From Candidatus Woesearchaeota archaeon (GTDB taxonomy: Archaea; Nanobdellota; Nanobdellia; Tiddalikarchaeales; Tiddalikarchaeaceae): a stretch of 64,000 nucleotides of DNA. The position numbers and the translations under genes were made by a program. The DNA is taken from contig CAYWEY010000003.1 of NCBI GenBank assembly GCA_964457955.1, forward strand, positions 14,439-78,438. Reading direction: 5' to 3'. Each line of letters opens with the position of its first letter. Within the stretch, counting starts at the first letter, position 1. The notes beneath the pieces were generated by a model. It was not told the origin of the DNA. It did no database searches and saw only the letters and a list, made by a program, of their open reading frames with translations. Shown here piece by piece: positions 7,246-58,969 of this stretch.

Positions 7246-7282
7246 GATAATTAATGATATTTTTTTATTTAATAAAATTATT

Positions 7283-7356
7283 GGGCTTGCCCGGATTTGA
7301 ACCGGGATCGCGAGGCCCCGAACCTCGAATCATAAACCAAGTTAGACTACAAGCCC
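7283..7356 (-). tRNA. tRNA-Pro (anticodon CGG)
   Basis: Minus-strand cloverleaf: acceptor GGGCUUG, anticodon stem-loop CGAGG-UUCGGGG-CCUCG, T-arm CCCGGUUCAAAUCCGGG. Confidence 0.8.
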
Positions 7357-11687: not shown

Positions 11688-11726
11688 AAATCCTATTTCT
11701 GGATTCAATAGTATAAAAATTATATC

Positions 11727-11895
11727 GGGCTCGAGGGGATTTGAACCCCCGACCTACTGCTTAATCCCCTAAATATGTTCATAGTAGGTCAGTGTCTTCA
11801 TATGATTTCATGAGTAAAATCTCAGTTGACCTTCTTCTAATCATAATTTTTTAGGTTAGGAGGCAGTCGCTCTATCCAAACTGAGCTACGAGCCC
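11727..11895 (-). tRNA. tRNA-Arg (anticodon CCT) with a 95-nt intron at the canonical 37/38 position
   Basis: 5' exon 11857-11895 (GGGCUCGUAGCUCAGUUUGGAUAGAGCGACUGCCUCCUA) and 3' exon 11727-11761 (AGCAGUAGGUCGGGGGUUCAAAUCCCCUCGAGCCC) join to a 74-nt cloverleaf; intron 11762-11856. Confidence 0.7.
11789..11844 (-). ncRNA. candidate C/D-box sRNA embedded in the tRNA-Arg(CCT) intron
   Basis: In tRNA orientation: AUGAUUA (C-like), 12 nt, CUGA (D'), 10 nt, AUGAAAU (weak C'), 12 nt, CUGA (D). 56 nt, typical archaeal C/D sRNA size; the C box deviates from RUGAUGA. Confidence 0.35.
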
Positions 11896-19161: not shown

Positions 19162-19435
19162 GTGGTTGGTTAGTACCCTGCCTTCTGTACAACCCCTATT
19201 AACTTTGAATAGTAGGGTGTTGGCAACATTCTACTAAGCGCACCAGTGTGCTTGCACTTCTCAACAGGTTAAGAGATTTTCCATCCCAAATTCATGAAAC
19301 CTCAATTCAAATATCATCGTGCTCATGAAAGGGTGTTTTTCTGCTTCTCATTAACAAATCCTTAAGATTAATTGTCTGTTTCTCAGTGGGCAGAGGTTCC
19401 CCAGCAATCAGCCGTGAGTTGCCTAAACCAACCAC
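19162..19435. ncRNA. unidentified GC-enriched structured RNA candidate (~274 nt)
   Basis: ~42% GC island in ~28% GC DNA; perfect 10-bp terminal helix GTGGTTGGTT/AACCAACCAC plus several internal hairpins; no ORF. Could not be matched to 5S, SRP RNA or RNase P RNA consensus by eye. Confidence 0.3.
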
Positions 19436-19989: not shown

Positions 19990-22935
19990 ATTATTTGTGA
20001 GTTTCAGCTTATTAGTGAACGCGGGCTTAACACGTCGTTGCCTTCGTGCTTACACCCCGTTTCTATCTAACCCATCATTTAATGGAAAGCTTCAGACGAT
20101 GCCTCTTTTTGCGGAGGGCTTCGAGCTTAGATGCTTTCAGCTCTTATCCCATTGGGACGTAGCTGCCCAGCGTGCCTTGTCAGACAACTGGTAGACCAGT
20201 GGTCCCGGAGGATCGTTCCTCTCGTACTCAACCCTCCTTCCACTCAGGCATCGAACACTTCCAGTAGATATAAGCCGAACTGAGTCACCTCGTTCTGAAC
20301 CCAGCTCACGATCCCTTTTAATCGGTGAACACCCGCACCCTTGGCCGCTTGTGTACGGCCAGGATAGAGAGAGCCGACATCGATGAAGCAAGCCCCGCCG
20401 TAGATGCATTCTCCCGGGCGGGACAACTCTGTTATCCCCAGGGTAGCTTTTCTGTCAGACGTATTCCTCAAAAAAAGGATATATACGCGTTCGCTAAACC
20501 ACACTTTCGTGTCAGAACTTCTCGCTGTGCGAAGTCCTGTCAGGCCAGCTTTTGCTTTTGCACTCTACTCCGGATTTCTGTCCCGGATGAGCTGACCTTA
20601 GGGCGCCGGTGATAAATTTTCGCCGGCGTGCCACCCCAGCCAAACTGCCCGACAACAGGTGTCCCAAGAGATAAATCTCAAGGTAAGCATTATCATCCAT
20701 AATTGACAGTGTCCCATTGACGGCTCAGCAACACCCGAAAGTATTGCGTCGAAGCCTTCTGTCTACGCTTCGAATTACGGGTAATAACGCAGCTGCAGGC
20801 TGCAGTAAAGTTCCTGGGGTCTTCTCATCCCACTGGAAGTCCCCGGCTTCTGCACCGGGCAAGTGTATTCACAGGGTTCAAGTTTGGGACAGTAGGAACC
20901 TAGTTACGTCGTTCGCAAAGCCACTAATTAGATGGCAAGGCATTGCGCTACCATAAGAAGGTCATAGTTACCTCCGTCGTTTACCAGTCCTTAGGCCCGT
21001 TGAACCGGGATTTCAGATACTGGCACTGGACAGACGTCACGGGTTATACAAGACGTTTCCGTTTAGCAACCCGCTATGTTTTTGTTAAACAGTCCGGTTC
21101 CCCTAGTCACTGCGCCCAGCACTCGCAGTCTTAAGACTACGAACGCTGAGACCCCTTCTCCCGAAGTTACGGGGCGAATTTGCCGAGTTCCCTAAACTTG
21201 ATTACACCCTACAGGCCTTAGGCTACTCACCCAGGACACCTGTGTCGGTTCTGGGTACGGTTAATCAGAGTCCTTGAAGATGAGATTTTCACGGGCTCCA
21301 GGAATTAATTGAACTCGAGTACACGAGCTGTTCTCAGTATTAATCCATTTCTCCTCATTACGAGACTCCATGGACTTGTACTGATTAAATAACACGACAG
21401 TGTTACTCAACCTATCCCGAAGCGTCTCTCAATCCTCCTTGCGTTGCCGCACGTATCTGATTAGTACAGGAATATTAACCTGTTTCCTTTTCCCCACTTA
21501 GCAGTTAAGCCGTGAGTTAAGACCGACTAACTCTTCGCTGACGAGCGGTGCGAAGAAACCCTTGTCCTTACGGCCATGTGGATTCTCACCACACTATGAT
21601 GCTACTACCGGCAAGATACTCAAACCCAAAACGGTCCATGCAAACTCACGTTCGCACTTCTAACCACTCAGGTCGCCTTCCTACCCGGACACGTCCTACA
21701 ACGTGTCCCCTAAAGTCTCGGTAATTGGCTTAGCCCCGTCCATTTACAGCGCCACCAACCTTGATGAGTAAGCTATTACGCACTTATTATAGGTTTGCTG
21801 CTTCTAAGCCTACCTCCTCACTGTCTCTGGTTGATGACAACCTCATTTGCACTTAGTCAATATTTTGGGACCTTAACTTTAGTCTGGGTTGTTCCCCTCT
21901 CGAACATAAGGCTTACCCCTATGCTCCGACTCCCACCATCTCAGATATTGCAGCATTCGGAGTTTGACTTGGGATCGGGAAACTTTTGTCTCCTCGCATG
22001 CCAAATCAGTATCTCTACCTCTGCAACCATCTCCGGTGAGGCTAGACTGTGGCCTAATTTGGAAGGAACCAGCTATCGCCGAACACGATTGGCTTTTCAC
22101 CCCTATTCCCAGCTCTCGGGAACGCCTTGCTCACAGTACCCCTACAGTCCTCCACGAACTGGAAAGTCCGCTTCAACTTGTCCAGGAATAGATCGTTCGG
22201 CTTCGGGTATTAAAGCAGTAACTTCAGGCGCTATTCACACCCTGCCCCTCGCATGCTGTGGGCATAATTGCTTTCGCTTCGGCTTCACACTAAACGTGTT
22301 TAACCTCGCCACTACCTTAAATTCCTTGCCTCTTTGTCCAAAAGGAACACTGCAACACTCGAAGTGCCGCAGCCTCCTGTGACCATTAGGTTTCAGGATC
22401 TTTTAACTCCCTTTTACGGGTTCTTTTCAACTTTCCCTCACGGTACTTGTACGCTATCGGTATCCTAACCTATTTAGGGTTGGAAGTTTTTGACTCCCAT
22501 CTTCTTAGAGGAATACCATCCCCTAATACTCTGGGAACTGGATATCATTCTTTTTACTTCCTTTACGGGACTGTCACCCTCTATGGTGCTCTATTCCAAG
22601 AGACTTTAAGTCGTAAAAACAATGAATGTTTCCAGCCCAAAACAGCACATCTCACTCATGTCACCATGACTGATTCACTTTGCCCTATTCCCCTTTCGAT
22701 CGACTCTAATAAGGGAATCCCTAACTTGGTTTCTCTTCCTGCGGGTACTAAGATGATTCAATTCTCCGCGTTCCTCCTGCCAAAAGCAGTAACCCCGAAG
22801 GGTTCGGATTCCTATTCGGGAATTCCTGGCTCAAAGGCTCCATGCGCCTCCCCAGGACTTATCGCAGCTTGGCACGCCCTTCATCAGGGTTAGGATCCAA
22901 GTCATCCACCTAATGGCGTCTTTACTCCACATCAT
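19990..22935 (-). rRNA. rrl: 23S (LSU) ribosomal RNA
   Basis: Minus strand 5' region GGUGGAUGACUUGG...CCCUGAUGAAGGGCGUGCCAAGCUGCGAUAAG (22861-22910), sarcin-ricin loop AGUACGAGAGGAACGAUC (20215-20232), GC-rich ~2.95 kb with no coding potential; ends approximate (+/-40 nt). Confidence 0.9.
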
Positions 22936-46570: not shown

Positions 46571-47839
46571 TTATTCGTAAGTTATTGCTTTTATCGGGTC
46601 AAGATGAGATGCTTTCCTTGCAGGAAGATATCCTGAAAGAGCCCCAATAACAATACTAAGAAGCAATGAATAAAACAGTATATTAAAACTTATTGCTAAT
46701 CTTATACCATTAGATAATCCTGGAAGCACCGCAGGAGCAAAACTAACCATTATTTGAGCCAATCCAATACCCATAATTATACCACCAAAACCCCCTATTA
46801 AACTTATTAATACAGACTCAACAAGAATTAATAATATAATATCCAGATTCTTAGCACCAATCGCTTTCATAATACCAATTTCACGAGTCCTCTCATAAAC
46901 ACTAGTAAACATAGTATTAGATATTGAAACCACACCAACCAACAAACTAATTGCAGCAATACCCGTCAATAACATTGTTATAGTATTCAAAACATCACCC
47001 ACCATACTCATCTTAGAAACACTTTCTAAAATATGAAAATCCTCCTCATCCCATTCACTAATATCATGAGTATTGCGCAATGCTTCTTTTATCAAAACAG
47101 AAGTCTCATTAACAACATCCTGACTTGAAGCACGAACAGTTATACTATCATAACTTTCATCCCAACCCTCATCAAACAACTCAACATTATCAACAATCAT
47201 AAACACACTATCATCCGAACCACCCCTACCCTGCTCTTCAAGTATACCTGCAACGCGAAACTCCTCACTATACTCATCACCACTCTCATCTTCAAACAAC
47301 AAAATATCCCCAACAAAAACTTCCTCATCAAAAACCTCATGAGCAATACGATAACCAATAACAATCTTGTCCTCATCATTATCATCCATAAAATAACCCT
47401 CTTCAAAATCAAAACTCTCAATCACCTCATACTCTGAAGGAATAACAAAATTAACAGAGACAGTAATACTCTCATCCTCAAACTCCATTCTCAAACGCTC
47501 ACTCACCAGAGGACTAACAGCAACAATATTCGGAAGAGTCAAGAGTTCATCAACATCCTCATCTGTCAAAACTGCTTCCCCATTATCATATTCATTATTC
47601 TTATATCCTCCTGGACGCATCCTACTCGCTTCCTGCGCACTACCCGGCAATACTTGAATATTCTCAGTGCCAAAAGCACTGAACTGCTCATTCAAACTTA
47701 CATTAATACTCTCGCCAAGACTCATTAATCCAACAACACTCGCTATACCAATAACTATACCAAGAATAGTCAACCAGCTACGCAATCCTTTAAAACCAAT
47801 ATTCTTTAATGATAATGATAAAACATCCCTAAGTCTCAT
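46571..47839 (-). CDS. ABC transporter permease, MacB/FtsX-type with periplasmic domain
   Basis: N-terminal TM + MacB_PCD-like extracytoplasmic domain + C-terminal FtsX 3-TM bundle. Confidence 0.8.
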   Translation of the reverse strand: MRLRDVLSLSLKNIGFKGLRSWLTILGIVIGIASVVGLMSLGESINVSLNEQFSAFGTENIQVLPGSAQEASRMRPGGYKNNEYDNGEAVLTDEDVDELLTLPNIVAVSPLVSERLRMEFEDESITVSVNFVIPSEYEVIESFDFEEGYFMDDNDEDKIVIGYRIAHEVFDEEVFVGDILLFEDESGDEYSEEFRVAGILEEQGRGGSDDSVFMIVDNVELFDEGWDESYDSITVRASSQDVVNETSVLIKEALRNTHDISEWDEEDFHILESVSKMSMVGDVLNTITMLLTGIAAISLLVGVVSISNTMFTSVYERTREIGIMKAIGAKNLDIILLILVESVLISLIGGFGGIIMGIGLAQIMVSFAPAVLPGLSNGIRLAISFNILFYSLLLSIVIGALSGYLPARKASHLDPIKAITYE

Positions 47840-47852
47840 TCCCCACTACTCC

Positions 47853-49253
47853 TTACTTCTTTTTCCTTTTCTTAATAATTACATAACTAACCACAACAAC
47901 AAATACTACTCCAATAAAACCAAGTCCTGCATAAACTCCAGTCCAATCAACAGTTCCCTGATTCTTAAAACCACCTCCCCCCTGCTTAAAATCTTCAGGC
48001 ATGTCGGGAGTAGCAAAACTCGTAGTTGCTTGACTATCATAAATTATCTCTTTTGTAATGTTCTCAACCATTCTCTGACCCAACTGATTCGTGAAACTAA
48101 TCTCAAAACCCAAATCAATCAATCCTTCAGAAACCATCTCCTGCCGAGCCCCCCTCCTCTCCTGCATACTCATATTCTCACCTTTTAATGTAAAAGTAAA
48201 ACTGGACGTTGAATAATCACCAGGCACCAAATCACCCACAAAATCCTGATTAACACTCCCAATACCAATATTCCCATTATCCCTTATAGATAATACAACA
48301 GAATCCGCATCAACAGTACCAATATTAGCAAGAGTCACCCTCACTTTAACTTCAGAACTATCCTTACTGAAAGAAACATCCTTAATCAACAATTCAAAAG
48401 GAGAACCCCCCTCAATATTCGCCCCAAAACTACTTTCAGAACTATACTCATCACTATCACTCTCATAACTCAAGTTAACAACAGACTCATGCATTCCAGT
48501 ACTCACAGAACTATCCGAAACAAGCTCCAAAACAACATCCTGACTCTCACCACCAAAAATATCATCTAAAACAATAACATTAGATGATGAGTGAGTGCTA
48601 AAAGTATCAGAATCAAAACTCAACTCAACATTCTCTGCTTCAACAACACCTGAATTCTTAACAGTCAATATTAATTGAAAAACTTCTCCAGGAGTAATCT
48701 CCTCATCAGACAAAACAATATCTGAAATAATCAAGTTCGGCTCTATACGCGAATTCTCTATCTCAAAAAATTCCTTATAACTCACATGTTTCCCAAAATC
48801 CTCATCAGAACCATCATAACTAGGCCTTGTTGAATATCTTATACTAAAATATGCTGAATAATAATCTGTAGTAATATTCTCAGGAATCTCTATCTTATAA
48901 ATCAGTTGTTTAGAATCACTTCCATAAACATCACCAACAGGTTCATAACAACTACTAGGATATTCTAAACAAACCCTTCTGGATAAACTAAATTTATTAC
49001 AACTCTCACACTCCATACTACACTCAAGAGGAGAATCAACACTATCAAGAACAATCTCAGTATTATAAGCTGGGTTCGTCCCATCATTATTCAATATAAT
49101 TTTTAGATAACCCGTCCCGCCAGGCTCCATTCCAACAACTTCCGAACTAATCTGCAATACAGGGTTTTCAGGAGTAGCTCCCGAACAAAAATTAATTAAC
49201 AACAAACTAACCAATATAACTGCTACCGGTCTTAACTTCATATTCACCATCAC
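47853..49253 (-). CDS. large secreted/cell-surface protein with C-terminal TM anchor (COG1361/DUF11-like)
   Basis: Signal peptide, beta-rich S/T/D-rich extracellular region, C-terminal TM helix + KKRKKK stop-transfer. Confidence 0.45.
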   Translation of the reverse strand: MMVNMKLRPVAVILVSLLLINFCSGATPENPVLQISSEVVGMEPGGTGYLKIILNNDGTNPAYNTEIVLDSVDSPLECSMECESCNKFSLSRRVCLEYPSSCYEPVGDVYGSDSKQLIYKIEIPENITTDYYSAYFSIRYSTRPSYDGSDEDFGKHVSYKEFFEIENSRIEPNLIISDIVLSDEEITPGEVFQLILTVKNSGVVEAENVELSFDSDTFSTHSSSNVIVLDDIFGGESQDVVLELVSDSSVSTGMHESVVNLSYESDSDEYSSESSFGANIEGGSPFELLIKDVSFSKDSSEVKVRVTLANIGTVDADSVVLSIRDNGNIGIGSVNQDFVGDLVPGDYSTSSFTFTLKGENMSMQERRGARQEMVSEGLIDLGFEISFTNQLGQRMVENITKEIIYDSQATTSFATPDMPEDFKQGGGGFKNQGTVDWTGVYAGLGFIGVVFVVVVSYVIIKKRKKK

Positions 49254-49932
49254 TTATCACCTTTCCATCAAGCATTTTAATAACACGAGGCGCTTGCCTC
49301 GCAATCTTAGGATCATGAGTCACAACAATCAAAGTATTACTATTATTCCATAATTTCTTGAACAATTTAACCACTTCCTTACCAGTCTTGCTATCCAAAT
49401 TACCAGTAGGCTCATCAGCAAAAATTATCTTCGGATTATTCGCTAATGCACGAGCAATAGCAACTCTCTGCCGCTGACCACCCGACAATTGTCCAGGAAG
49501 ATGGTCACATCTTTCTCCAAGACCCACATTCTTAAGCAGTTTCCTCGCCCTCTCCTTACGATCACCATCCTCCTCACCCGCAAAAATCATAGGTAATTCA
49601 ACATTCTCAAGAGCAGTCAAATTAGGTGTTAAGAAAAAAAACTGGAAAACAAAACCAATATTCTCACTTCTCAAATGAGTAAGTTCATCATCACTTAATT
49701 CATCAACTTTAGAACCGTTTATGAAAACATTCCCCTTTGTAGGCATGTCCAATAATCCCATAACATGCATAAGAGTACTCTTACCACATCCAGACGGACC
49801 GTAAACAGCGATGAACTCACCTTCTTCAACTTCCAAACTAACACCATTAACTGCTTTCACAATATTACTCTTGCCAAGACGATAATACTTCTTCACATTC
49901 TTCAACTCGATTATCTTATTATTATCACTCAT
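49207..49932 (-). CDS. ABC transporter ATP-binding protein (MacB/LolD-like)
   Basis: GPSGCGKSTL Walker A, LSGGQRQRVAIARAL signature, IFADEPTGNLD Walker B; likely start at MSDNNK (49932), not the ORF-track start 49962. Confidence 0.85.
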   Translation of the reverse strand: MSDNNKIIELKNVKKYYRLGKSNIVKAVNGVSLEVEEGEFIAVYGPSGCGKSTLMHVMGLLDMPTKGNVFINGSKVDELSDDELTHLRSENIGFVFQFFFLTPNLTALENVELPMIFAGEEDGDRKERARKLLKNVGLGERCDHLPGQLSGGQRQRVAIARALANNPKIIFADEPTGNLDSKTGKEVVKLFKKLWNNSNTLIVVTHDPKIARQAPRVIKMLDGKVISDGEYEVKTGSSYIG

Positions 49933-49973
49933 GAATAATATTTCATAATACTGAAACAGCATATTAAACTAAC

Positions 49974-51300: not shown

Positions 51301-52298
51301 TCAACCAAGTTTCTCATTATAGAAACAATTTGGATCTGAATTAAATAATGATCCTGTTTTATAGAATGAACTTGCTCTGCATCCCCCACAAAAATATTTA
51401 GAATTACAAGAGCCACAAGGGCCATTAAATGAAGTTCTATTCCTTAATCTTTTCAAAACTTTATTATTAAACCAGATATCATTTAATGATTCATTGAAAA
51501 CATTGGCCAAAACGTATTTAATGAAAGGACAAGGCAAAACATCACCATTAGAACAAATATAAATTGATGCCACTCCTGCAATACATCCCCCAGTTATTCC
51601 TTTTCTTTTATTACTTTCAAGTAGTTTAAATCTATCATCATCAACCAAAAATAAAAGAACATTAGAGCATTTGATCAGTTTATTATTTTTTTTAATTTTT
51701 GATATCTTCTTAAGAGCTTTTTGCAATTCTTTTGGATTTAATGTTTCATTTTCAAAGGAATTGTTAACCGGGACCAGACGATTGATTCCTATTTCAACAT
51801 TCATTTCAGAAGCAAATTTATCTAATTCATCTAATGAATTAATCAATGATTTATGTAATGCTGCTTGAAGTGTAACCTTAATGTTATTATTTTTAAGTAA
51901 TTCAATTTTACTAATCAAATCTGACAAATAATTCTCTCTAAAACAAGATTCATCCCCTGGAGGCACATCAATACTCAATTGAATTGAATCAAATACTTTT
52001 AATTGGTTAATATTATTTTCATTTATCAACAAACCATTAGTCATCAAGATTAATTTAGGAAAATCTTTTTGCTTAGCATATATAGCATATTCAAATAATT
52101 CTTTAACCATTAATGGCTCCCCCCCCCAGTAAATACTAACCTATAAACTTCAAGTTCTTTTAATTCATCAATCAAACTAAAAACTTTTTCAGGATTTAAT
52201 TTTTTTACAGGATTACGTCTAACATAACAATGCTTACAATCAAGATTGCATTCATTTGTTAATTCTATTTCAACTATATGAAGCCCTTTATTTTCCAT
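51301..52298 (-). CDS. radical SAM / SPASM-domain enzyme (paralog 3), interrupted by a frameshift in a C9 run
   Basis: N-terminal ORF (52110-52298) ELTNECNLDCKHCY (CxxxCxxC)...VFTGGG stops inside a C9 run; C-terminal ORF (51301-52110) has SPASM cysteines CIAGVASIYICSNGDVLPC...CGSCNSKYFCGGCRA. Confidence 0.6.
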
Positions 52299-53352
52299 CT
52301 CTCAAACCATAAATAACACAATAAGGGTCACCTCTAAAAGGATCACCTAATAATTTATCCGCAAAAGCCCTACACCCACCTGTGCATAATCTCAATAAAT
52401 CACATTTACTACACTTATCTTCTTTTGGGATGAAATAACGAAACTTTTTCATAACACTTGAGTCTTTCCAAACTTTTAATAAATCATCAGTAAGCGCATT
52501 ACCACACAAAAACTTTTCTGATTTGAAATAATTACACGGAACAATATACCCACTAGCAGTTATAACCATTTTAAATCTCCCAGCCATACAAAAAGGAATT
52601 TTTATTCTATCAAGTTCGTTTAAAAAAATTAAAGCATGATTTGGTTTGATTTTAATATCTAATTTTTTAATTTTTTGGTATATGGTATAAAACTCTCTCC
52701 ATTCTTTTTTAGATAAAATATATTTATGTCTTGATTCACCACAAGGGATCATATCTAATAAATGTAATTCCATATAATCTCTTTTTTTAACAAAAGAAGC
52801 TAATTCAAAAATTTCCTTATAATTTAATTTATTAACAACACATGCGATTGATATTTTATTTTTATCAAAATACTTCTCTAACAATTCTAAAGAATCAAAC
52901 AATTTTTTAAGTAAATCCTTCCCTCCTCTTATTTCATCCTGTTTATTTAAACTATCGATATTAACATTAATTTTATCAAAACCAATTTCTCCAATCCTTT
53001 TAGCAATTAATTTATTAATTAATAATAAGTTTGTATTTAGATGAACTTTTATTCCATTTCTTTTTAAAGAATCCGCAAGTTCTAAAAGAATTTCCGCTCT
53101 AATCAATGGTTCACCTCCAGAAAATGAAACATACAAAGGATTTAATTGATTAATGATTTTTTTATTAATAATTCTTAACTCATCATTATTTAATTCTCTT
53201 TTTTTAAAACAATTATCTTTATTATAACAATAAACACAATCAAGATTGCATTTGTTAGTTAAATCAAATTGTACTTGTGCAGGTCTAGTAAATAAATATT
53301 CAAAATCAGATAATTTCTTAGAATTAGTTAAATCAAATTTTGGATTCATCAA
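52288..53352 (-). CDS. radical SAM / SPASM-domain enzyme (paralog 2)
   Basis: FDLTNKCNLDCVYCYN (CxxxCxxC), SFSGGEPL, SPASM CMAGRFKMVITASGYIVPC...CSKCDLLRLCTGGCRA. Confidence 0.75.
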   Translation of the reverse strand: MMNPKFDLTNSKKLSDFEYLFTRPAQVQFDLTNKCNLDCVYCYNKDNCFKKRELNNDELRIINKKIINQLNPLYVSFSGGEPLIRAEILLELADSLKRNGIKVHLNTNLLLINKLIAKRIGEIGFDKINVNIDSLNKQDEIRGGKDLLKKLFDSLELLEKYFDKNKISIACVVNKLNYKEIFELASFVKKRDYMELHLLDMIPCGESRHKYILSKKEWREFYTIYQKIKKLDIKIKPNHALIFLNELDRIKIPFCMAGRFKMVITASGYIVPCNYFKSEKFLCGNALTDDLLKVWKDSSVMKKFRYFIPKEDKCSKCDLLRLCTGGCRAFADKLLGDPFRGDPYCVIYGLRDGK

Positions 53353-53390
53353 TTAAATCCAAGAGAATATTTATTCTTAAATATTTCTAA

Positions 53391-53492
53391 CTAATCTCCA
53401 TTTAATTCACAAACAGAACTCAAAACTTCTTCAACAGATAATTTCCATGAGTCTTCATTTGAATCTTCTGTTTTTTTAGTTGCTTCTTCCAT
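53391..53492 (-). CDS. candidate precursor peptide (33 aa; below ORF-track cutoff): MEEATKKTEDSNEDSWKLSVEEVLSSVCELNGD
   Basis: ATG..TAG ORF in the 165-nt gap between the methyltransferase and rSAM paralog 2, same strand; acidic leader-like N-half, single Cys near C-terminus. Confidence 0.3.
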   Translation of the reverse strand: MEEATKKTEDSNEDSWKLSVEEVLSSVCELNGD

Positions 53493-53517
53493 AAACAAGT
53501 GTAATTACTATCAATAT

Positions 53518-54294
53518 TTATAAACTTTTTCTTAAAATGTAATATTGCCTGCTAAGGTGTTTTTGTTCATCCCAATATATCTTGGATTCATCAATTATTT
53601 CCAACACTTCAAAACCAATATCGTTAACAATACTTTCGATCTCACTTGACGAATAACCTCGTTCCACATGTTTTTCTTTAATTTCTTTTTCACCTTTTTT
53701 TAGTATTATATCCAAACACCATATATTTTCTTCTCCACTGAAATTAAATGTGATATTATTCCTCCCTATATTAAAAATTCTTTGTGGTGCATTACTTGAC
53801 ACACTTACATGCTCTTTTGTATTCATATCAAATATGAAATAAGCTCCTTTGTTTAAATGGTCATAGACCTTCTTAAAAACCTTTTTTAAATCGTCAATAG
53901 ATAATAAATAATTAAGTGAATCATAAAATGATACTGCCAGATCAAATTTTTTAGGAATATTAAAAGTTCTTAAGTCACTGATTACAAAATTAATCTTATC
54001 ATTATATGCTTTAAGTTTTTCTTTTGCGAGATTAATCATATATTTTGATTTATCAACACCTACTACATTAAAATCTAACTCTAATAACATCTTAGAAATC
54101 GTCCCTGTCCCACAAGCAAGATCTATTGCATTTCCTTTAATACTATACTTTTTAACTTGTTCTTTAATAAGATCATTCCATTTATCGTATTTCGATGAAG
54201 TCATTAATTCATCATAAAGATTTGAGAATTCAATTCCATAATTATTTGGTTGTTTCATTTTGATGACTGTATGAAAACCTACAGAAACCTCCAC
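53518..54294 (-). CDS. class I SAM-dependent methyltransferase (Methyltransf_11/25-like)
   Basis: IDLACGTGTISKML motif I, VGVDKS, LAVSFYDSLNY. Confidence 0.7.
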   Translation of the reverse strand: MEVSVGFHTVIKMKQPNNYGIEFSNLYDELMTSSKYDKWNDLIKEQVKKYSIKGNAIDLACGTGTISKMLLELDFNVVGVDKSKYMINLAKEKLKAYNDKINFVISDLRTFNIPKKFDLAVSFYDSLNYLLSIDDLKKVFKKVYDHLNKGAYFIFDMNTKEHVSVSSNAPQRIFNIGRNNITFNFSGEENIWCLDIILKKGEKEIKEKHVERGYSSSEIESIVNDIGFEVLEIIDESKIYWDEQKHLSRQYYILRKSL

Positions 54295-55417
54295 ATCTTA
54301 TTTCATCCTTATTGATATCACACTCTTCACAAAGCGGAATTAAAAATTTTTCTGTCTCTTCTAATAAATCAGAAATTACTCTTTCAGGAATATATTCATT
54401 TAAATTACCTAATTTTGAGTTTCTATCCATCACACAAGGATATAAATATCCTTTAACATCTATCGATATCCTCTTTCTAATACCACACCCATACCATCTT
54501 GATTCGGGTATTGTTTTTTTAGTTGCTAAAAATCCGTTACGGACGTGTTTATTACTTAAATATTGTTTCAATACAATATGAGCATCTTTTGAATTAATTT
54601 TATTAAACACAGCATTTCCTGTTTTAATTGCAGGTCTCAAATGAAGAGTGGTATTAAAATTTTTGGCCAAATTTATAAGTTTTGGAACATCTGAATAATT
54701 GTGGTCTCCAAGAGTAGTTACTAAATATTCTGGGATATTGTTCTCACATAATTTTTCTAAACCAATCAACAAATCATCAAATAAACCTTTTCTTTTACGA
54801 ATCGTATCATGGTTTTTTCCATAACCATCTATGCTTACAGCAAGACCAAGACTATTTTTTAATGTTTTAAAAAAGTCTTCATTTTTATTTTTTAATTGAC
54901 CTCCATTTGTAACAATATAATAATTTCTTCCATTATTATCTATTCTTTTAAGAATTTCTTGCAAATCATTTCTAAGAAGAGGTTCTCCCCCAGTTACTTC
55001 AAAAACCATCAAACCTAAATCACACAATTTATCAACTCTTTCTAATAAATCCTTTTTACTTGGCGAACCTTTATTCAAATCTTTTTTATGATAACAAGCT
55101 TTACAATCACAATCACAATTTGATGTTGCTTCTAACAAAACTTGTGAAGGCAAGAGATCGTTATCAACCTTAAAAGTTTTAACATAATTATTATTGTTCT
55201 CAATAATTATCCCGCTTTGATATAATCTAACTAAATCTTTTGTTGAAACTTGTGAGAAGTCATTATTTAACAATGATTTTGTTGTTTTTTTATCAACCCA
55301 AAAAAATGATGCATAAAGACCAGGAGTTACTATTGTACTTCCTGAAGGTTCTTGTCTTATTATTGTCTTTTCATCGAATCCTAATTTATAAAAATCAATA
55401 TTTTTAATTATATCCAA
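54242..55417 (-). CDS. radical SAM / SPASM-domain enzyme (paralog 1) with ~100-aa N-terminal extension (possible RRE-like substrate-binding domain)
   Basis: LLEATSNCDCDCKACY (CxxxCxxC), VTGGEPLL, SPASM WYGCGIRKRISIDVKGYLYPC...CEEC...CGGFC; 53-nt overlap with methyltransferase. Confidence 0.75.
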   Translation of the reverse strand: MDIIKNIDFYKLGFDEKTIIRQEPSGSTIVTPGLYASFFWVDKKTTKSLLNNDFSQVSTKDLVRLYQSGIIIENNNNYVKTFKVDNDLLPSQVLLEATSNCDCDCKACYHKKDLNKGSPSKKDLLERVDKLCDLGLMVFEVTGGEPLLRNDLQEILKRIDNNGRNYYIVTNGGQLKNKNEDFFKTLKNSLGLAVSIDGYGKNHDTIRKRKGLFDDLLIGLEKLCENNIPEYLVTTLGDHNYSDVPKLINLAKNFNTTLHLRPAIKTGNAVFNKINSKDAHIVLKQYLSNKHVRNGFLATKKTIPESRWYGCGIRKRISIDVKGYLYPCVMDRNSKLGNLNEYIPERVISDLLEETEKFLIPLCEECDINKDEIRCGGFCRFSYSHQNETTK

Positions 55418-55472
55418 ATCAGTATTATCTTTCCTGATTTCACTTAAACATGGAACTCCTAAGTTGTGTTGA

Positions 55473-56357
55473 TTAATAATAGTAATTTTTCATCATCTCT
55501 GTCATTTCATTATAACAAATATCATCTGAAACTTCTACATTAATAATCCTTTTGATTGCATTTTCCTTTTTAATAATCCCCCATCTGATTCTTTCTGAAA
55601 AATAATTGATCACTATTGGTAGTGATTTATTGATTTGTTTCAAAGTTAATTTGCTTTTTCCATAAATATTTCTTAATATAAAACCAGGTATTAAACAATC
55701 AGTGTCATACCCTCCACACATAGGATCCTCCCAAGGAATTCTTTCTTCATTTTTAATATTTTTAATTTTCTCTTTTGTTAACCCCAATGCTGCCGAACCT
55801 CTTAAAACGCAATAATCTCTTTTTTTCCAAAAAATTGAGTATCGTTTTAATGATTCATTGAATTTTGGAGTATCCCCTCCTGTTATTAATAAATTATTAC
55901 TATTTTGCTTTAAATATTTTTTATAATAATTATCCAGTATATCGTTACAAATTTTACCGCAAGGAAGTTTTTTATTCACAATCATATCTGTGTAAATACA
56001 TTTATCTTTATCATTTATATTAATCCATTCATGATTATTCTTTAAATTTTCAAATTCTAAAACCCTTCGAATATTTTTTTTCACCTTATTTCCTTTATAA
56101 CCATGATTAATGGTAAAAAGATTAAGTTCCACATTATAATCATCAGTTAACTTTCTTAATTCATGTAGTGTTATAACACTATCTAATCCTCCTGAAAAAG
56201 CAAAACTAACTGAATCAGTTTCTAATAAATAATTTATTAATTCTTGCTTAAACAGAGTGGAAAAACATTTAACTGTTTCATCATCTAATTCTTTACAATA
56301 ATCACAAATTGTATTCTTTGTCAATACAAGACAATTATCACAAAATTCCATGTACAT
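55473..56357 (-). CDS. PP-loop ATP pyrophosphatase, TtuA/NcsA-like architecture (N-terminal Cys4 zinc ribbon + SGGxDS)
   Basis: CDNC...CDYC, then SFAFSGGLDSV PP-loop; additional Cys pairs CGKIC and CGGYDTDC. Confidence 0.55.
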   Translation of the reverse strand: MYMEFCDNCLVLTKNTICDYCKELDDETVKCFSTLFKQELINYLLETDSVSFAFSGGLDSVITLHELRKLTDDYNVELNLFTINHGYKGNKVKKNIRRVLEFENLKNNHEWININDKDKCIYTDMIVNKKLPCGKICNDILDNYYKKYLKQNSNNLLITGGDTPKFNESLKRYSIFWKKRDYCVLRGSAALGLTKEKIKNIKNEERIPWEDPMCGGYDTDCLIPGFILRNIYGKSKLTLKQINKSLPIVINYFSERIRWGIIKKENAIKRIINVEVSDDICYNEMTEMMKNYYY

Positions 56358-56828
56358 ATCTCAAATTTATTCATTAATAAATATTAATTAATATGCAACA
56401 AATTATAAAAAGGAACAGAAGATAATTGGGAAAGTTCTTGATAATGAAATTGTAAGCGAAAAAATTAGAGGATATTTTAAATTTGAATCATTTGATGAAG
56501 TTATTTATAGAATAAAAAAAATACTTTTTGGAGGAATAGCATTTAATCAAATTATTAAGGATGAATCTCTTAAAAATGTTAATTTAGGAAGAATGACATT
56601 CATTAAAGATTTATCTCCTTTAGCAGAAGAATTTGAAGAACATCAAGAATTGTTTTCAAGAATATCAGATAATGAGGTAATAATTGATTTTGCACAATTA
56701 AAATATCAAGTAAGTAATAAGTGGAAAATGAAAAATGAAAAGTAAAAAAGATAAAAGTATTTTAAAAAATGATATTCATAACTCACAAAACAAAGAGAAA
56801 GGGAGCATAAACTGAACAGAGCATATTA

Positions 56829-56903
56829 TGCCCCCTCCGGGATTCGAACCCGGGTCGTCGGCTTGAAAGGCCGATATCCTTAACCGGACTAGACGAAAGG
56901 GGC
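56829..56903 (-). tRNA. tRNA-Glu (anticodon TTC)
   Basis: Acceptor GCCCCUU/AGGGGGC, anticodon stem-loop UCGGC-CUUUCAA-GCCGA, T-arm CCGGGUUCGAAUCCCGG. Confidence 0.8.
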
Positions 56904-56996
56904 AATTAAATAATATACTATTTGGCATAACGATTTTTTAAACCTTTTGGAAATTTTCATAATATTTTTAATCTGTTATAATATTGTTATAACTTT

Positions 56997-57488
56997 ATGA
57001 GTGAAGTGCTTGACGTGATTAAGAAAGATGGCAAAGTTATTGACAAAAAAAGTAGAGAAGTTGTTCATGAGAAGCACTTACTGCATAAACAGGTTATGAT
57101 TTTTGTTTTCAACAGTAGTGGAGATGTCTTGGTGCAGAAGAGGAGTAAAAAAAAAGAAATATTCCCAAATTACTGGAGTATTGGAGTAACAGGTCACGTA
57201 CTTTCAGGAGAAGATGAGCGCTCTGCAGCAGTAAGAGAAGCTAAAGAAGAATTAAGTATGATAATTAAGCAGTCACACCTTATTAATATAGGAAGTTTTG
57301 TTATTGATGTGCCTGAAGAGTATGCTAAAATAAAAATGTATTATTATGAATATAATGCTGAACTTGAGAGGAATAAAAAAGAAGTTGCAGATTTCAAGTA
57401 TATTCCTATCAATAAAGTGAGTAAGATAAAGAAACTCACACCCCTCTCAAAGAAGGCTTTAGAATTTTATAAAAACGAGATGTATTAA
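56997..57488 (+). CDS. Nudix hydrolase
   Basis: Nudix box GHVLSGEDERSAAVREAKEELSM. Confidence 0.7.
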   Translation: MSEVLDVIKKDGKVIDKKSREVVHEKHLLHKQVMIFVFNSSGDVLVQKRSKKKEIFPNYWSIGVTGHVLSGEDERSAAVREAKEELSMIIKQSHLINIGSFVIDVPEEYAKIKMYYYEYNAELERNKKEVADFKYIPINKVSKIKKLTPLSKKALEFYKNEMY

Positions 57489-57821: not shown

Positions 57822-58069
57822 ATATTGAGTCAATAGTTGATGAGTATAATAAGAGAAAACAAAAAGATTCTTCATACACTATTAAGGATTTAGTGGAAGA
57901 AATTAAGCCAAAATCAATAAGTGGTGAAGACTTCAGAAAAGAAGTTGATACAAAATTATTGAATTATTGTATGAGAAAAGCAATTGAGATGGATAAGAAG
58001 GGATTAATTGAAGAAGCAAACAAATACTATGAGTTGGCTGGAAGACTAAAAAAAAATTTCTTAAAGTAA
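57818..58069 (+). CDS. small hypothetical protein
   Basis: 83 aa. Confidence 0.3.
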   Translation: MNIESIVDEYNKRKQKDSSYTIKDLVEEIKPKSISGEDFRKEVDTKLLNYCMRKAIEMDKKGLIEEANKYYELAGRLKKNFLK

Positions 58070-58969
58070 ACTTTTTGGAATAGTTCTATTCTTCTCAGCA
58101 AGACGCATTGATTCTCTGACTGACTTAATAGTTTTTTTCTTAATATTAAGAGTTTTCATTATTTCATTATCAGACTTTTCTTCTTCAAAGAGCACGAGTA
58201 TCTTGTCAATAAGAAGAGGAGATACTCCTATTATTGCTTCTTCATCAGCACCAGGGAATAAGTCAGGACTCGCTGGTTTATTAACAATATTTTTAGGGAC
58301 GCCAAGATAATCTGCTACTTTTTTAATCTCTGTTTTGTATAAGTGTTTAATTATACTAATATCATGTGCTCCGTCTCCGTACTTGTCATAAAAACCCATT
58401 AACCATTCAGTCTTATCAGTTGTTCCTAGAACTAAACCATTCTTCAGATAAGCATAATGATAAAGTAGTGCCATCCTAATCTTAACTTTGGTTAATAAGA
58501 AAGCACCTATAAAACCATACTTATTGAAAATCTTTTTCTGAAATTTTGAAAGCTTACCATACCAGAATTTTTGCGCAAAAATATATGGTGAGAAGTCTGG
58601 AAATATTTTTTTAATAAGAGAGGAAACTGTTTTAGTAATCATCTTACCAGGTCTTGCAGGAAGAAGTTCGTAAACACCTAATTCTTCAAGAACTGGAGTA
58701 ATATTTATTTTCTCATAATTTATACCAAGATTCTTGGCAACTTTTTCCGCATCACTCATATTTTTTTCATCAGAATCTTTTTCTGGCATTATAAGTCCAA
58801 AAACATTCTCCTTACCTAAAATCTTAACAGCAAGATAACAAGCAGTTGAAGAATCGAGTCCGCCTGAAAGCCCAACTATTACTCTATCCTTGTTAAAATT
58901 TTTCATCTCTCTCTTTAAGAACTTCTTAATCTTATTAACTTCTTTTTCAGGATTAATATTAAGCATCAA
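58061..58969 (-). CDS. nadE: NH3-dependent NAD+ synthetase
   Basis: VIVGLSGGLDSS PP-loop, NadE-family length and C-terminal region. Confidence 0.8.
   Translation of the reverse strand: MMLNINPEKEVNKIKKFLKREMKNFNKDRVIVGLSGGLDSSTACYLAVKILGKENVFGLIMPEKDSDEKNMSDAEKVAKNLGINYEKINITPVLEELGVYELLPARPGKMITKTVSSLIKKIFPDFSPYIFAQKFWYGKLSKFQKKIFNKYGFIGAFLLTKVKIRMALLYHYAYLKNGLVLGTTDKTEWLMGFYDKYGDGAHDISIIKHLYKTEIKKVADYLGVPKNIVNKPASPDLFPGADEEAIIGVSPLLIDKILVLFEEEKSDNEIMKTLNIKKKTIKSVRESMRLAEKNRTIPKSLL

Follow-up and report, generated by a model that had tools for sequence, protein, structure and literature searches.

The window studied here comprises 64 kb of the Candidatus Woesearchaeota contig CAYWEY010000003.1 and is archaeal, with an archaeal large subunit (LSU) ribosomal RNA gene at 19992-22935, an archaeal RNase P RNA and a GC content of ~26-30% outside the rRNA. 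Between positions 51301 and 56357, six genes follow each other head to tail on the minus strand. The first encodes a PP-loop ATP pyrophosphatase (55473-56357, 294 aa) and is followed by the genes for a radical S-adenosylmethionine (SAM) enzyme named rSAM-1 (54242-55417, 391 aa), a class-I SAM-dependent methyltransferase (53518-54294), a small peptide (53391-53492) and two further radical SAM enzymes, rSAM-2 (52288-53352, 354 aa) and rSAM-3, the latter divided into an N-terminal (52110-52298, 62 aa) and a C-terminal fragment (51301-52110, 269 aa). A preliminary description of this DNA had reported the co-directional block at these positions, where it is indeed present, and had read it as an undescribed radical SAM/SPASM peptide-maturation cluster with the small open reading frame (ORF) as substrate. 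The co-conservation of peptide and enzymes and the structural match of the rSAM-1 model support this core proposal.

The small ORF consists of 33 codons plus stop and, as the preliminary description had noted, occupies a sizeable intergenic gap (130 nt). Its product, MEEATKKTEDSNEDSWKLSVEEVLSSVCELNGD, has a variable N-terminus, the leader motif SWKLSVEEV and a C-terminal core that reads C-E-L-N-G-D. Every related locus with sequence in that place encodes a homologue of the peptide right behind the methyltransferase gene and ahead of rSAM-2. Examples are the peptide of locus L088, MEEQIQKDEWKLSIEEVLTQCCAINGD, the two copies in L004, …DEWKMSIQDMLDKACAINAD and …DEWKLSIKDMLDKGCAINKD, and, for the candidate phyla radiation (CPR) version, …DWKMSVKDFEKNGCLINGD, with the CPR consensus …(D/E)W(K/Q)M(S/D)V(K/E)(E/D)F(E/K)(K/A)NGC(L/M)IN(G/S)(D/N). 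With a profile search, ~56 different peptides were collected; they measure 27-62 aa, and the source annotation names none. Throughout the family W(-18), C(-6) and N(-3) are invariant, and each peptide ends in D or N. The C-terminal 18 residues are free of insertions and deletions (W-x11-C-x2-N-x-(D/N)-stop), and the part that precedes them varies in length and composition. The family is thus described by a recognition motif, (D/E/S)-W-K/Q-(L/M)-x-(V/I)-x-(D/E)-(F/V/M), and a core of fixed length, C-x-(I/L/V)-N-x-(D/N). Codon differences are mostly synonymous, both between the peptide genes of L088 and L089 (seven synonymous, one non-synonymous) and between the two copies in L004 (ten synonymous, four non-synonymous), and the ORF is therefore under purifying selection. 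The 33-codon ORF is a genuine gene of a conserved peptide family, and it is co-located and co-conserved with its putative modifying enzymes, the arrangement that identifies clusters for peptides made on ribosomes and then modified post-translationally (RiPPs).

The gene order PP-loop ATPase, rSAM-1, methyltransferase, small ORF(s), rSAM-2, rSAM-3 is the same in every related locus with enough sequence, that is in ~20 loci from metagenome-assembled genomes (MAGs) of Patescibacteria (CPR) and from a few archaeal contigs. In the neighbourhood comparison suggested in the preliminary description, small ORF and gene order are kept in bacteria and archaea alike. An arrangement that returns, with a homologous peptide, wherever related loci cover this place is far beyond chance. 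Homologue clusters numbered 54 for rSAM-1 (37-52% identity) and ~95 for the PP-loop protein, and the contigs from which the two sets derive have matching lengths. A scan of GTDB with one genome per species returned 13 true cassette members, all of them Patescibacteria MAGs (Falkowbacteria, Paceibacterota and Moraniibacteriota), although a few carry a Gammaproteobacteria label in their records. A second group shares ~50% identity with the proteins of the window, and archaeal markers occur on some of its contigs (L44e and L7Ae in L004, an archaeal-type uS10 in L088). The PP-loop family is rare: in a search of 1.84 billion representative proteins, 27 clusters matched at E<=1e-30. A scan of viral contigs retrieved distant radical SAM enzymes only, with neither a cassette nor a member of the PP-loop family. 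When the flanking ORFs of 16 loci were compared all against all, the cassette genes alone recurred; the flanks are made up of housekeeping genes, different ones from locus to locus, and no transporter, protease, immunity gene or target protein was conserved in them. On one Moraniibacteriota contig (L010, 1282-3363), genes resembling rSAM-2 and rSAM-3 (28% identity) are present as a further pair ~1.6 kb upstream of the cassette, and a motif search detected no peptide adjacent to them.

The division of the peptide into leader and core is supported by a sister archaeal system. The three outlier peptides P0217-P0219 (M.EK.EWKLSIEDFE.AAC-YRDHGDYRPV…) possess the same motif and the same W-x11-C spacing, and their sequence after the cysteine is different. 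Their locus, L091, is located on an archaeal contig of 233 kb with 46% GC (GCA_054014855.1, JBPMGB010000010.1, 8001-15111). Its peptide, MKEKKEWKLSIEDFERAACYRDHGDYRPVRPE, is followed by a radical SAM/SPASM protein of 426 aa, whose N-terminal 100 residues match the whole Pfam PqqD profile at a score just under the cut-off (E 3.7e-4, 21.2 bits). Further genes code for a radical SAM/SPASM protein 30% identical to rSAM-3, two radical SAM-like proteins without SPASM domain, a methyltransferase, an AstE/AspA-like hydrolase and a tetratricopeptide repeat (TPR) protein. L091 accordingly shares with the cassette the leader motif EWKLSIEDFE, the tryptophan-cysteine spacing, the rSAM-3 relative, additional radical SAM enzymes and a methyltransferase. 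It differs in its core (CYRDHGDYRPV…), in the position of the peptide gene, which comes first, in an RiPP recognition element (RRE) that is recognizable as PqqD, and in having the hydrolase and the TPR protein instead of a PP-loop ATPase. Since the two systems share the segment W-K-L-S-I-x-D-F and diverge downstream, this segment is assigned as leader and the sequence from the cysteine onward as core. A carboxamide or carboxylate residue stands three positions after the cysteine in both (C-x-x-N in the cassette, C-x-x-D in L091). The sister system L091 is itself undescribed.

The enzyme rSAM-1 carries the motif CDCDCKAC (C101-x-C103-x-C105-xx-C108) and a GGE motif, matches Pfam Radical_SAM with 59 bits (cut-off 29.5), and has ~90 aa in front of the radical SAM core. 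Six cysteines in the C-terminal part, a divergent SPASM/twitch-like region, are invariant in the family (C311, C328, C363, C366, C375 and C379; alignment A1), in which CGGFCRFS forms a signature. Their spacing, Cx2Cx8Cx3C, is without the final cysteine, and the top structural match, SkfB, has a twitch-type domain. The AlphaFold2 model of rSAM-1 reached a pLDDT of 87.8 and a pTM of 0.89. Against the PDB, Foldseek ranked SkfB (6efn) first (E 7e-18, 383 alignment columns, TM score 0.67), followed by SuiB and CteB; the alignments to these three RiPP maturases, all equipped with an N-terminal leader-binding domain, extend over nearly the full length at a sequence identity of 14-18%, while the cofactor and nucleotide enzymes MoaA, viperin and BlsE align over the core only. 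The N-terminal domain of the model (~residues 10-75) contains three to four strands (among them 19-23, 26-30 and 38-42) followed by two helices (43-50 and 59-67), and is predicted to be RRE-like. The preliminary description had placed an extension at the usual site of an RRE; a stretch of ~90 aa is present there and may form an RRE-like domain according to the model, but was not recognized as PqqD or RRE by sequence. The CPR loci encode an additional protein of 65-85 aa between peptide and rSAM-2 (alignment A2), with the conserved pattern LNP…EK.G…Y.DF.Y.FF…P..FIEYL…IL, which is missing in the archaeal-type loci including the window. A segment of ~28 aa at the N-terminus that includes the conserved motif 'LHHLGVPC', carried by nearly all rSAM-1 homologues, is lacking in the window protein as well as in P0050. 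Because the PP-loop gene is only 55 nt away, the segment is truly absent rather than overlooked by a wrong start.

The methyltransferase matches Pfam Methyltransf_25, _12 and _11. Translated from a GTG it comprises 258 aa and its gene overlaps that of rSAM-1 by 53 nt, as previously described; from the ATG at 54258 the protein has 246 aa and the overlap is 17 nt. The best NCBIfam match is the daptide methyltransferase (NF041820), of which it is not a member (62.6 bits, cut-off 175). Its nearest solved chains are the uncharacterized proteins 1y8c and 3d2l, then the N-methyltransferases ToxA, GSMT and DesVI. Some CPR homologues are fusions of rSAM-1 and methyltransferase (P0010, P0016 and P0044; a single ORF in L008, 5896-7905).

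The protein rSAM-2 affiliates with both Pfam Radical_SAM (77.7 bits) and SPASM (38 bits). Invariant in its family (alignment A7) are C35, C39 and C42, the GGE motif and eight C-terminal cysteines (C255, C273, C283, C314, C317, C323, C327 and C345). The N-terminal fragment of rSAM-3, with the motif CNLDCKHC and the end FTGGGSH before the stop codon, matches Radical_SAM (32.2 bits, cut-off 29.5); the C-terminal fragment contains a full SPASM domain (Pfam 39.9 bits; TIGR04085 42.7 bits, cut-off 27). In the rSAM-3 family (alignment A8), C17, C21 and C24 and seven C-terminal cysteines (C238, C256, C294, C297, C303, C306 and C324) are invariant, so that rSAM-2 and rSAM-3 both have full SPASM sets. 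The earlier picture of three paralogous radical SAM enzymes with CxxxCxxC motif and SPASM array thus holds for the radical SAM domain of all three and for the SPASM domain of rSAM-2 and rSAM-3; it does not hold for the integrity of rSAM-3, which is frameshifted, and is less certain for the SPASM domain of rSAM-1, which scores below the cut-off although six C-terminal cysteines are invariant.

These enzymes could in principle be maturases of the anSME or AhbD/NirJ type that act on an unlinked protein or a tetrapyrrole, with the small ORF being incidental. NirJ2 and AhbD are among the best NCBIfam matches of rSAM-2 and rSAM-3, and anSME is the solved chain closest in sequence to rSAM-2, ahead of SuiB and PqqE. 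The scores, however, lie far under the cut-offs (NirJ2 126 of 500 bits, anSME 70.8 of 349), as do those to MftC (104.8 of 265), PapB (68.6 of 340) and PqqE (81.5 of 381). The best NCBIfam match of rSAM-2, GeoRSP_rSAM, reaches 137.6 bits (cut-off 400), and the matches of rSAM-1 and rSAM-3 are lower still relative to the respective cut-offs. In all, none of the three proteins attained the cut-off of any NCBIfam family searched (anSME, AhbD/NirJ, PqqE, MftC, GeoRSP, PapB, SCIFF, AlbA, SkfB, StsB, WgkB and others), among them the anSME and cofactor types that the preliminary description had kept as an alternative. The nearest sequence matches of rSAM-2 and rSAM-3 are anSME, SuiB, PqqE and SkfB, all of them enzymes that act on peptides or proteins. 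Moreover, strict co-conservation ties the peptide to the enzymes, its ORF is under purifying selection, and in the flank comparison no locus has a linked gene for a sulfatase, a quinoprotein or the haem pathway, nor is any other flanking gene conserved. An unlinked substrate is therefore very improbable.

The PP-loop protein contains the motif SGGLDS and an N-terminal zinc-ribbon-like arrangement CxxC...CxxC (C6, C9, C19 and C22). The motifs LPCGxxCN, TGGDTPK and CGGYDTDC are invariant in the family, as are C133, C137 and C221 in the catalytic domain, where C214 is nearly so. The preliminary description had called this enzyme TtuA/NcsA-like. Its structural model (pLDDT 92.8) is closer to another type of enzyme: the best match by two methods was the N-acetyl sugar amidotransferase (NASAT) of Legionella (8wex), with a Foldseek TMq of 0.60 as compared to ~0.4-0.45 for TtuA, NcsA and TilS. 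NASATs combine a PP-loop SGGXDS with a zinc-binding tetracysteine and are described to replace the oxygen of an N-acetyl amide by NH, which converts the amide into an amidine (PMC10607449). Both SGGXDS and the tetracysteine CXXC…CXXC of the zinc site are present in the PP-loop protein. Similarity to the NASATs (WbuX/PseA/LfnA type) therefore includes these motifs, the N-terminal zinc-ribbon layout and the whole-protein fold. In contrast, the identity to 8wex is 14%, no NASAT/WbuX model appeared among the NCBIfam matches at E<=0.01, the motifs LPCGxxCN and CGGYDTDC are additional, and the genetic context is a peptide-modification cassette in all loci rather than a glycan cluster. Distant full-length relatives, P0238 (E 6e-22) and P0240, occur in unrelated contexts; in L093 (80-3459), a gene of the P0238 type follows a radical SAM gene, a gene with an FTCD_C domain and folD, which points to a wider uncharacterized clade of PP-loop enzymes.

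Were the PP-loop enzyme nevertheless a [4Fe-4S] sulfur transferase of the TtuA/NcsA type, it would introduce sulfur into the peptide as thioamide or thiocarboxylate instead of acting like an amidotransferase. The conserved cysteines of the catalytic domain, which come in addition to the N-terminal zinc ribbon, would fit such a role, and the cluster ligands of TtuA presumably reside at similar positions. NcsA (6scy) also appeared in the profile search of PDB sequences with the PP-loop family. On the other hand, the flanks of the 16 loci contain neither a sulfur-carrier gene (TtuB/ThiS-like) nor one for a cysteine desulfurase, and the closer structural relationship is that to NASAT. We regard a sulfur transferase as unlikely.

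Taken together, the block very probably constitutes an operon for a RiPP-type system of an undescribed family, in which three radical SAM enzymes, a methyltransferase and a PP-loop enzyme modify a small peptide. Several observations weigh against this interpretation. The SPASM match of rSAM-1 (PF13186) remains below the Pfam cut-off (17.1 and 21.5 bits, respectively). No match to PqqD (PF05402) at E<=10 was obtained for the N-terminal domain of rSAM-1 or the small CPR protein, searches of PDB sequences with the profiles A3 and A2 found no RRE protein, and hhalign of the rSAM-1 N-terminus or the small CPR protein against the PqqD-like domain of L091 was negative. The small CPR protein and the rSAM-1 N-terminal domain are collinear, with a weak hhalign similarity (E 0.0026, probability 11%). 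Since sequence searches fail to recognize PqqD or an RRE, the RRE assignment for rSAM-1 is a structure-based one. The lack of a linked protease or exporter in the flanks of the 16 loci is unusual for a secreted RiPP, and we infer the modification chemistry in its entirety. Finally, rSAM-3 of the window is split by nine G in the context ACT GGGGGGGGG AGCC (52119-52127; C9 on the plus strand), exactly at the GGE motif, and split genes are also found elsewhere, namely rSAM-3 in L011 (9386-10316) and the PP-loop gene in L009 (4900-5897). The latter two could be assembly errors or cases of recurrent inactivation; rSAM-3 is the affected gene in two instances when the window is included. With rSAM-3 broken in the window and L011 and the PP-loop gene split in L009, some copies of the cassette may be decaying.

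The frameshift of the window is not a one-off assembly error but a property of the population, because two Logan assemblies of other runs (L006 and L007) have the same G9 and differ from the window by 4-5 single nucleotide polymorphisms (SNPs) across the ~5 kb of the cassette. It is possible, though not our preferred explanation, that the window cluster is a decaying pseudo-operon without current function in this organism; the reproduction of the lesion in three assemblies and the split genes in other MAGs speak for it. Yet the other five genes are intact, both halves of rSAM-3 are open and have kept all catalytic and SPASM cysteines, and the SNPs among the three assemblies add no disruption, with the same ORFs called in each. 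The lesion also lies in the only G or C homopolymer of at least seven bases in the whole window, a type of site that is able to revert or to be bypassed by slippage. With seven or ten G the reading would continue as FTGG(G)EPLMVKEL, and the repaired protein of 331 aa is 29% identical to rSAM-2 (BLASTP E 8e-28). In the homologous loci rSAM-3 is intact, except in L011. The pathway of the window organism either misses one step or depends on slippage at the G9 run.

The cassette was evidently exchanged between CPR bacteria and small-genome archaea. An identical Falkowbacteria cassette occurs in two flank contexts, next to fmt and def in L001 and L003, and next to a rolling-circle replication initiator (REP_ORF2-G2P) and a serine recombinase in L002 (8742-10479). 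The presence of the initiator and the recombinase in one of these contexts hints at a mobile element as carrier of the cassette. The product might be not a secreted bioactive peptide but an intracellular cofactor or small molecule that is excised from the C-terminus, as in the case of pyrroloquinoline quinone (PQQ) and mycofactocin. In favour of this reading, the core hardly varies between two domains of life and forms the very C-terminus, MftC and PqqE are among the weak NCBIfam and PDB matches, and the flanks consist of varying housekeeping genes with no linked transporter, protease or immunity gene; given the missing exporter and protease and so strongly conserved a core, a cofactor-like product stays under consideration. 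In contrast to a core cofactor, however, the cassette is rare (27 PP-loop clusters, 13 species genomes), and no conserved partner oxidoreductase is found nearby. Furthermore, the cassette is broken in the window genome without obvious compensation, and the vicinity of replication-initiator and recombinase genes in L002 is more typical of accessory traits. Rarity and mobility thus favour an accessory trait, and a cofactor-like product has a limited chance of being correct, well short of even.

As a kind of system, the radical SAM/SPASM RiPP cluster is known; this specific family appears to be undescribed. With the sactipeptide, streptide and ranthipeptide systems of SkfB, SuiB and CteB, the cassette has in common a precursor gene beside a radical SAM enzyme that comprises an N-terminal domain of the leader-binding type, a radical SAM core and auxiliary-cluster cysteines. 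Unlike these systems, it adds a methyltransferase and a PP-loop ATPase to a set of three distinct radical SAM enzymes, has a single fixed C-terminal hexapeptide as core, is devoid of linked protease and exporter, resides in CPR and small-genome archaeal hosts, and its enzyme shows the low identity to these proteins given above and reaches no curated family cut-off. Mycofactocin (MftA/B/C) and PQQ (PqqA/D/E) resemble it in their small conserved peptide with C-terminal substrate residues, in the radical SAM/SPASM enzyme and in the missing exporter; their small RRE-type partner may be compared to the separate 65-85-aa protein of the CPR cassettes. They differ in core residues, which are Val-Tyr or Glu...Tyr instead of Cys and Asn, and the cassette has no partner dehydrogenases and a rare, patchy distribution. 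The daptide methyltransferase, best NCBIfam match of the cassette enzyme, acts on a modified peptide C-terminus, but the match is distant and the other daptide genes are absent. Scans of all cassette proteins against Pfam and NCBIfam returned generic radical SAM, SPASM, methyltransferase and PP-loop matches only. Neither Pfam, NCBIfam and the source annotations nor the literature searched contained a description of the peptide, the enzyme set or the NASAT-like PP-loop component, and a link between a PP-loop amidotransferase-like enzyme and ribosomal peptides was likewise not found in that literature. Generic radical SAM RiPP clusters have already been counted in DPANN/Nanoarchaeota and CPR by antiSMASH surveys (PMC12144867, PMC12153355), neither of which describes the present family. 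The earlier statement that this cassette family is undescribed is therefore upheld, whereas the statement that no RiPP-like cluster had been described in a DPANN-type archaeon was too strong.

A route to the product can be proposed from the predicted enzyme functions. The RRE-like N-terminal domain of rSAM-1 would dock the leader motif, a task to which the 65-85-aa protein of the CPR loci may contribute. The three radical SAM enzymes, with their auxiliary Fe-S cysteines, would then act on the C-terminal core through hydrogen-atom abstraction. Of the single events conceivable, the likeliest would be a thioether of the sactionine or ranthionine type from the invariant cysteine to the invariant asparagine of C-x-x-N. 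Methylation of what rSAM-1 produces is the probable task of the methyltransferase, given its translational coupling to rSAM-1 and the fusion of the two in some homologues. The PP-loop enzyme, which resembles NASAT, may spend ATP, releasing AMP and PPi, on adenylating a carbonyl or carboxylate in the core, for which the side-chain amide of the asparagine, a backbone amide and the carboxylate of the C-terminal Asp or Asn are candidates. Amidation, amidine formation, thiolation or cyclization could result, a substitution by nitrogen being likelier than one by sulfur.

Patescibacteria and archaea of very small genome size have nearly the same peptide core, position by position. That organisms which have shed most biosynthesis retain a 5-kb pathway of six genes for one hexapeptide core points to a function important for host biology, and the cassette provides a tangible example of genes passing between the two radiations of ultra-small cells. 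A speculative extension, which we consider rather improbable, is that the product is a new peptide-derived molecule, a hexapeptide C-x-(I/L)-N-x-(D/N) with a thioether and a PP-loop-dependent conversion of amide to amidine or a related ATP-driven carbonyl substitution, which would act as a conserved signal, cofactor or effector in CPR/DPANN-like episymbiosis. To our knowledge, this combination of thioether and amide-to-amidine chemistry is not known for ribosomal peptides. If true, a role in the episymbiotic lifestyle would explain why ultra-small members of two domains exchanged a 5-kb operon and kept it in minimal genomes. With its defined leader motif, its fixed core and a small set of enzymes, the system is directly testable by heterologous expression.

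Within the cassette, an A-rich stretch followed by a TATA-like box, AAAAAGTTTATAAATA, was read at 53515-53530 (minus strand). The box is situated ~28 nt upstream of the peptide ATG and overlaps the stop codon of the methyltransferase gene. It may be an internal archaeal promoter that would give rise to a near-leaderless peptide transcript, although such matches are common at ~26% GC. A terminator or attenuator hairpin downstream of the peptide gene was also considered and rejected, as its folding was no better than that of shuffled sequence (z = -0.72).

Upstream of the cassette are located a tRNA-Glu gene (56828-56904), a Nudix hydrolase gene (56997-57488) and a gene for a second PP-loop enzyme, the NH3-dependent NAD+ synthetase NadE (58061-58969), which scored 233.9 bits with NCBIfam (cut-off 255) and 205 bits with Pfam NAD_synthase. 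NadE and the Nudix hydrolase are ordinary housekeeping genes, and neither shows conservation alongside the cassette. Downstream, at a distance of ~1.3 kb and likewise on the minus strand, the window encodes an ABC system of the MacB/FtsX type (46571-49962). It is composed of an ATPase (49207-49962), a secreted repeat protein of 466 aa that is anchored in the membrane by its C-terminus (47853-49253) and an FtsX-like permease (46571-47839). This transporter could export a peptide, but was discarded as candidate exporter because none of the other loci has a counterpart linked to its cassette. The 23S rRNA gene of the window has neither a 16S nor a 5S rRNA gene adjacent to it within the window, so that the rRNA genes appear to be unlinked here; directly downstream of it is the RNase P RNA gene (19163-19434). 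An Rfam tRNA at 11726-11895 (minus strand) spans 170 nt, which implies an intron of ~95 nt, and was not called by ARAGORN. Conversely, ARAGORN called a tRNA-Pro at 7282-7356 that is absent from the list of Rfam matches at the gathering threshold.

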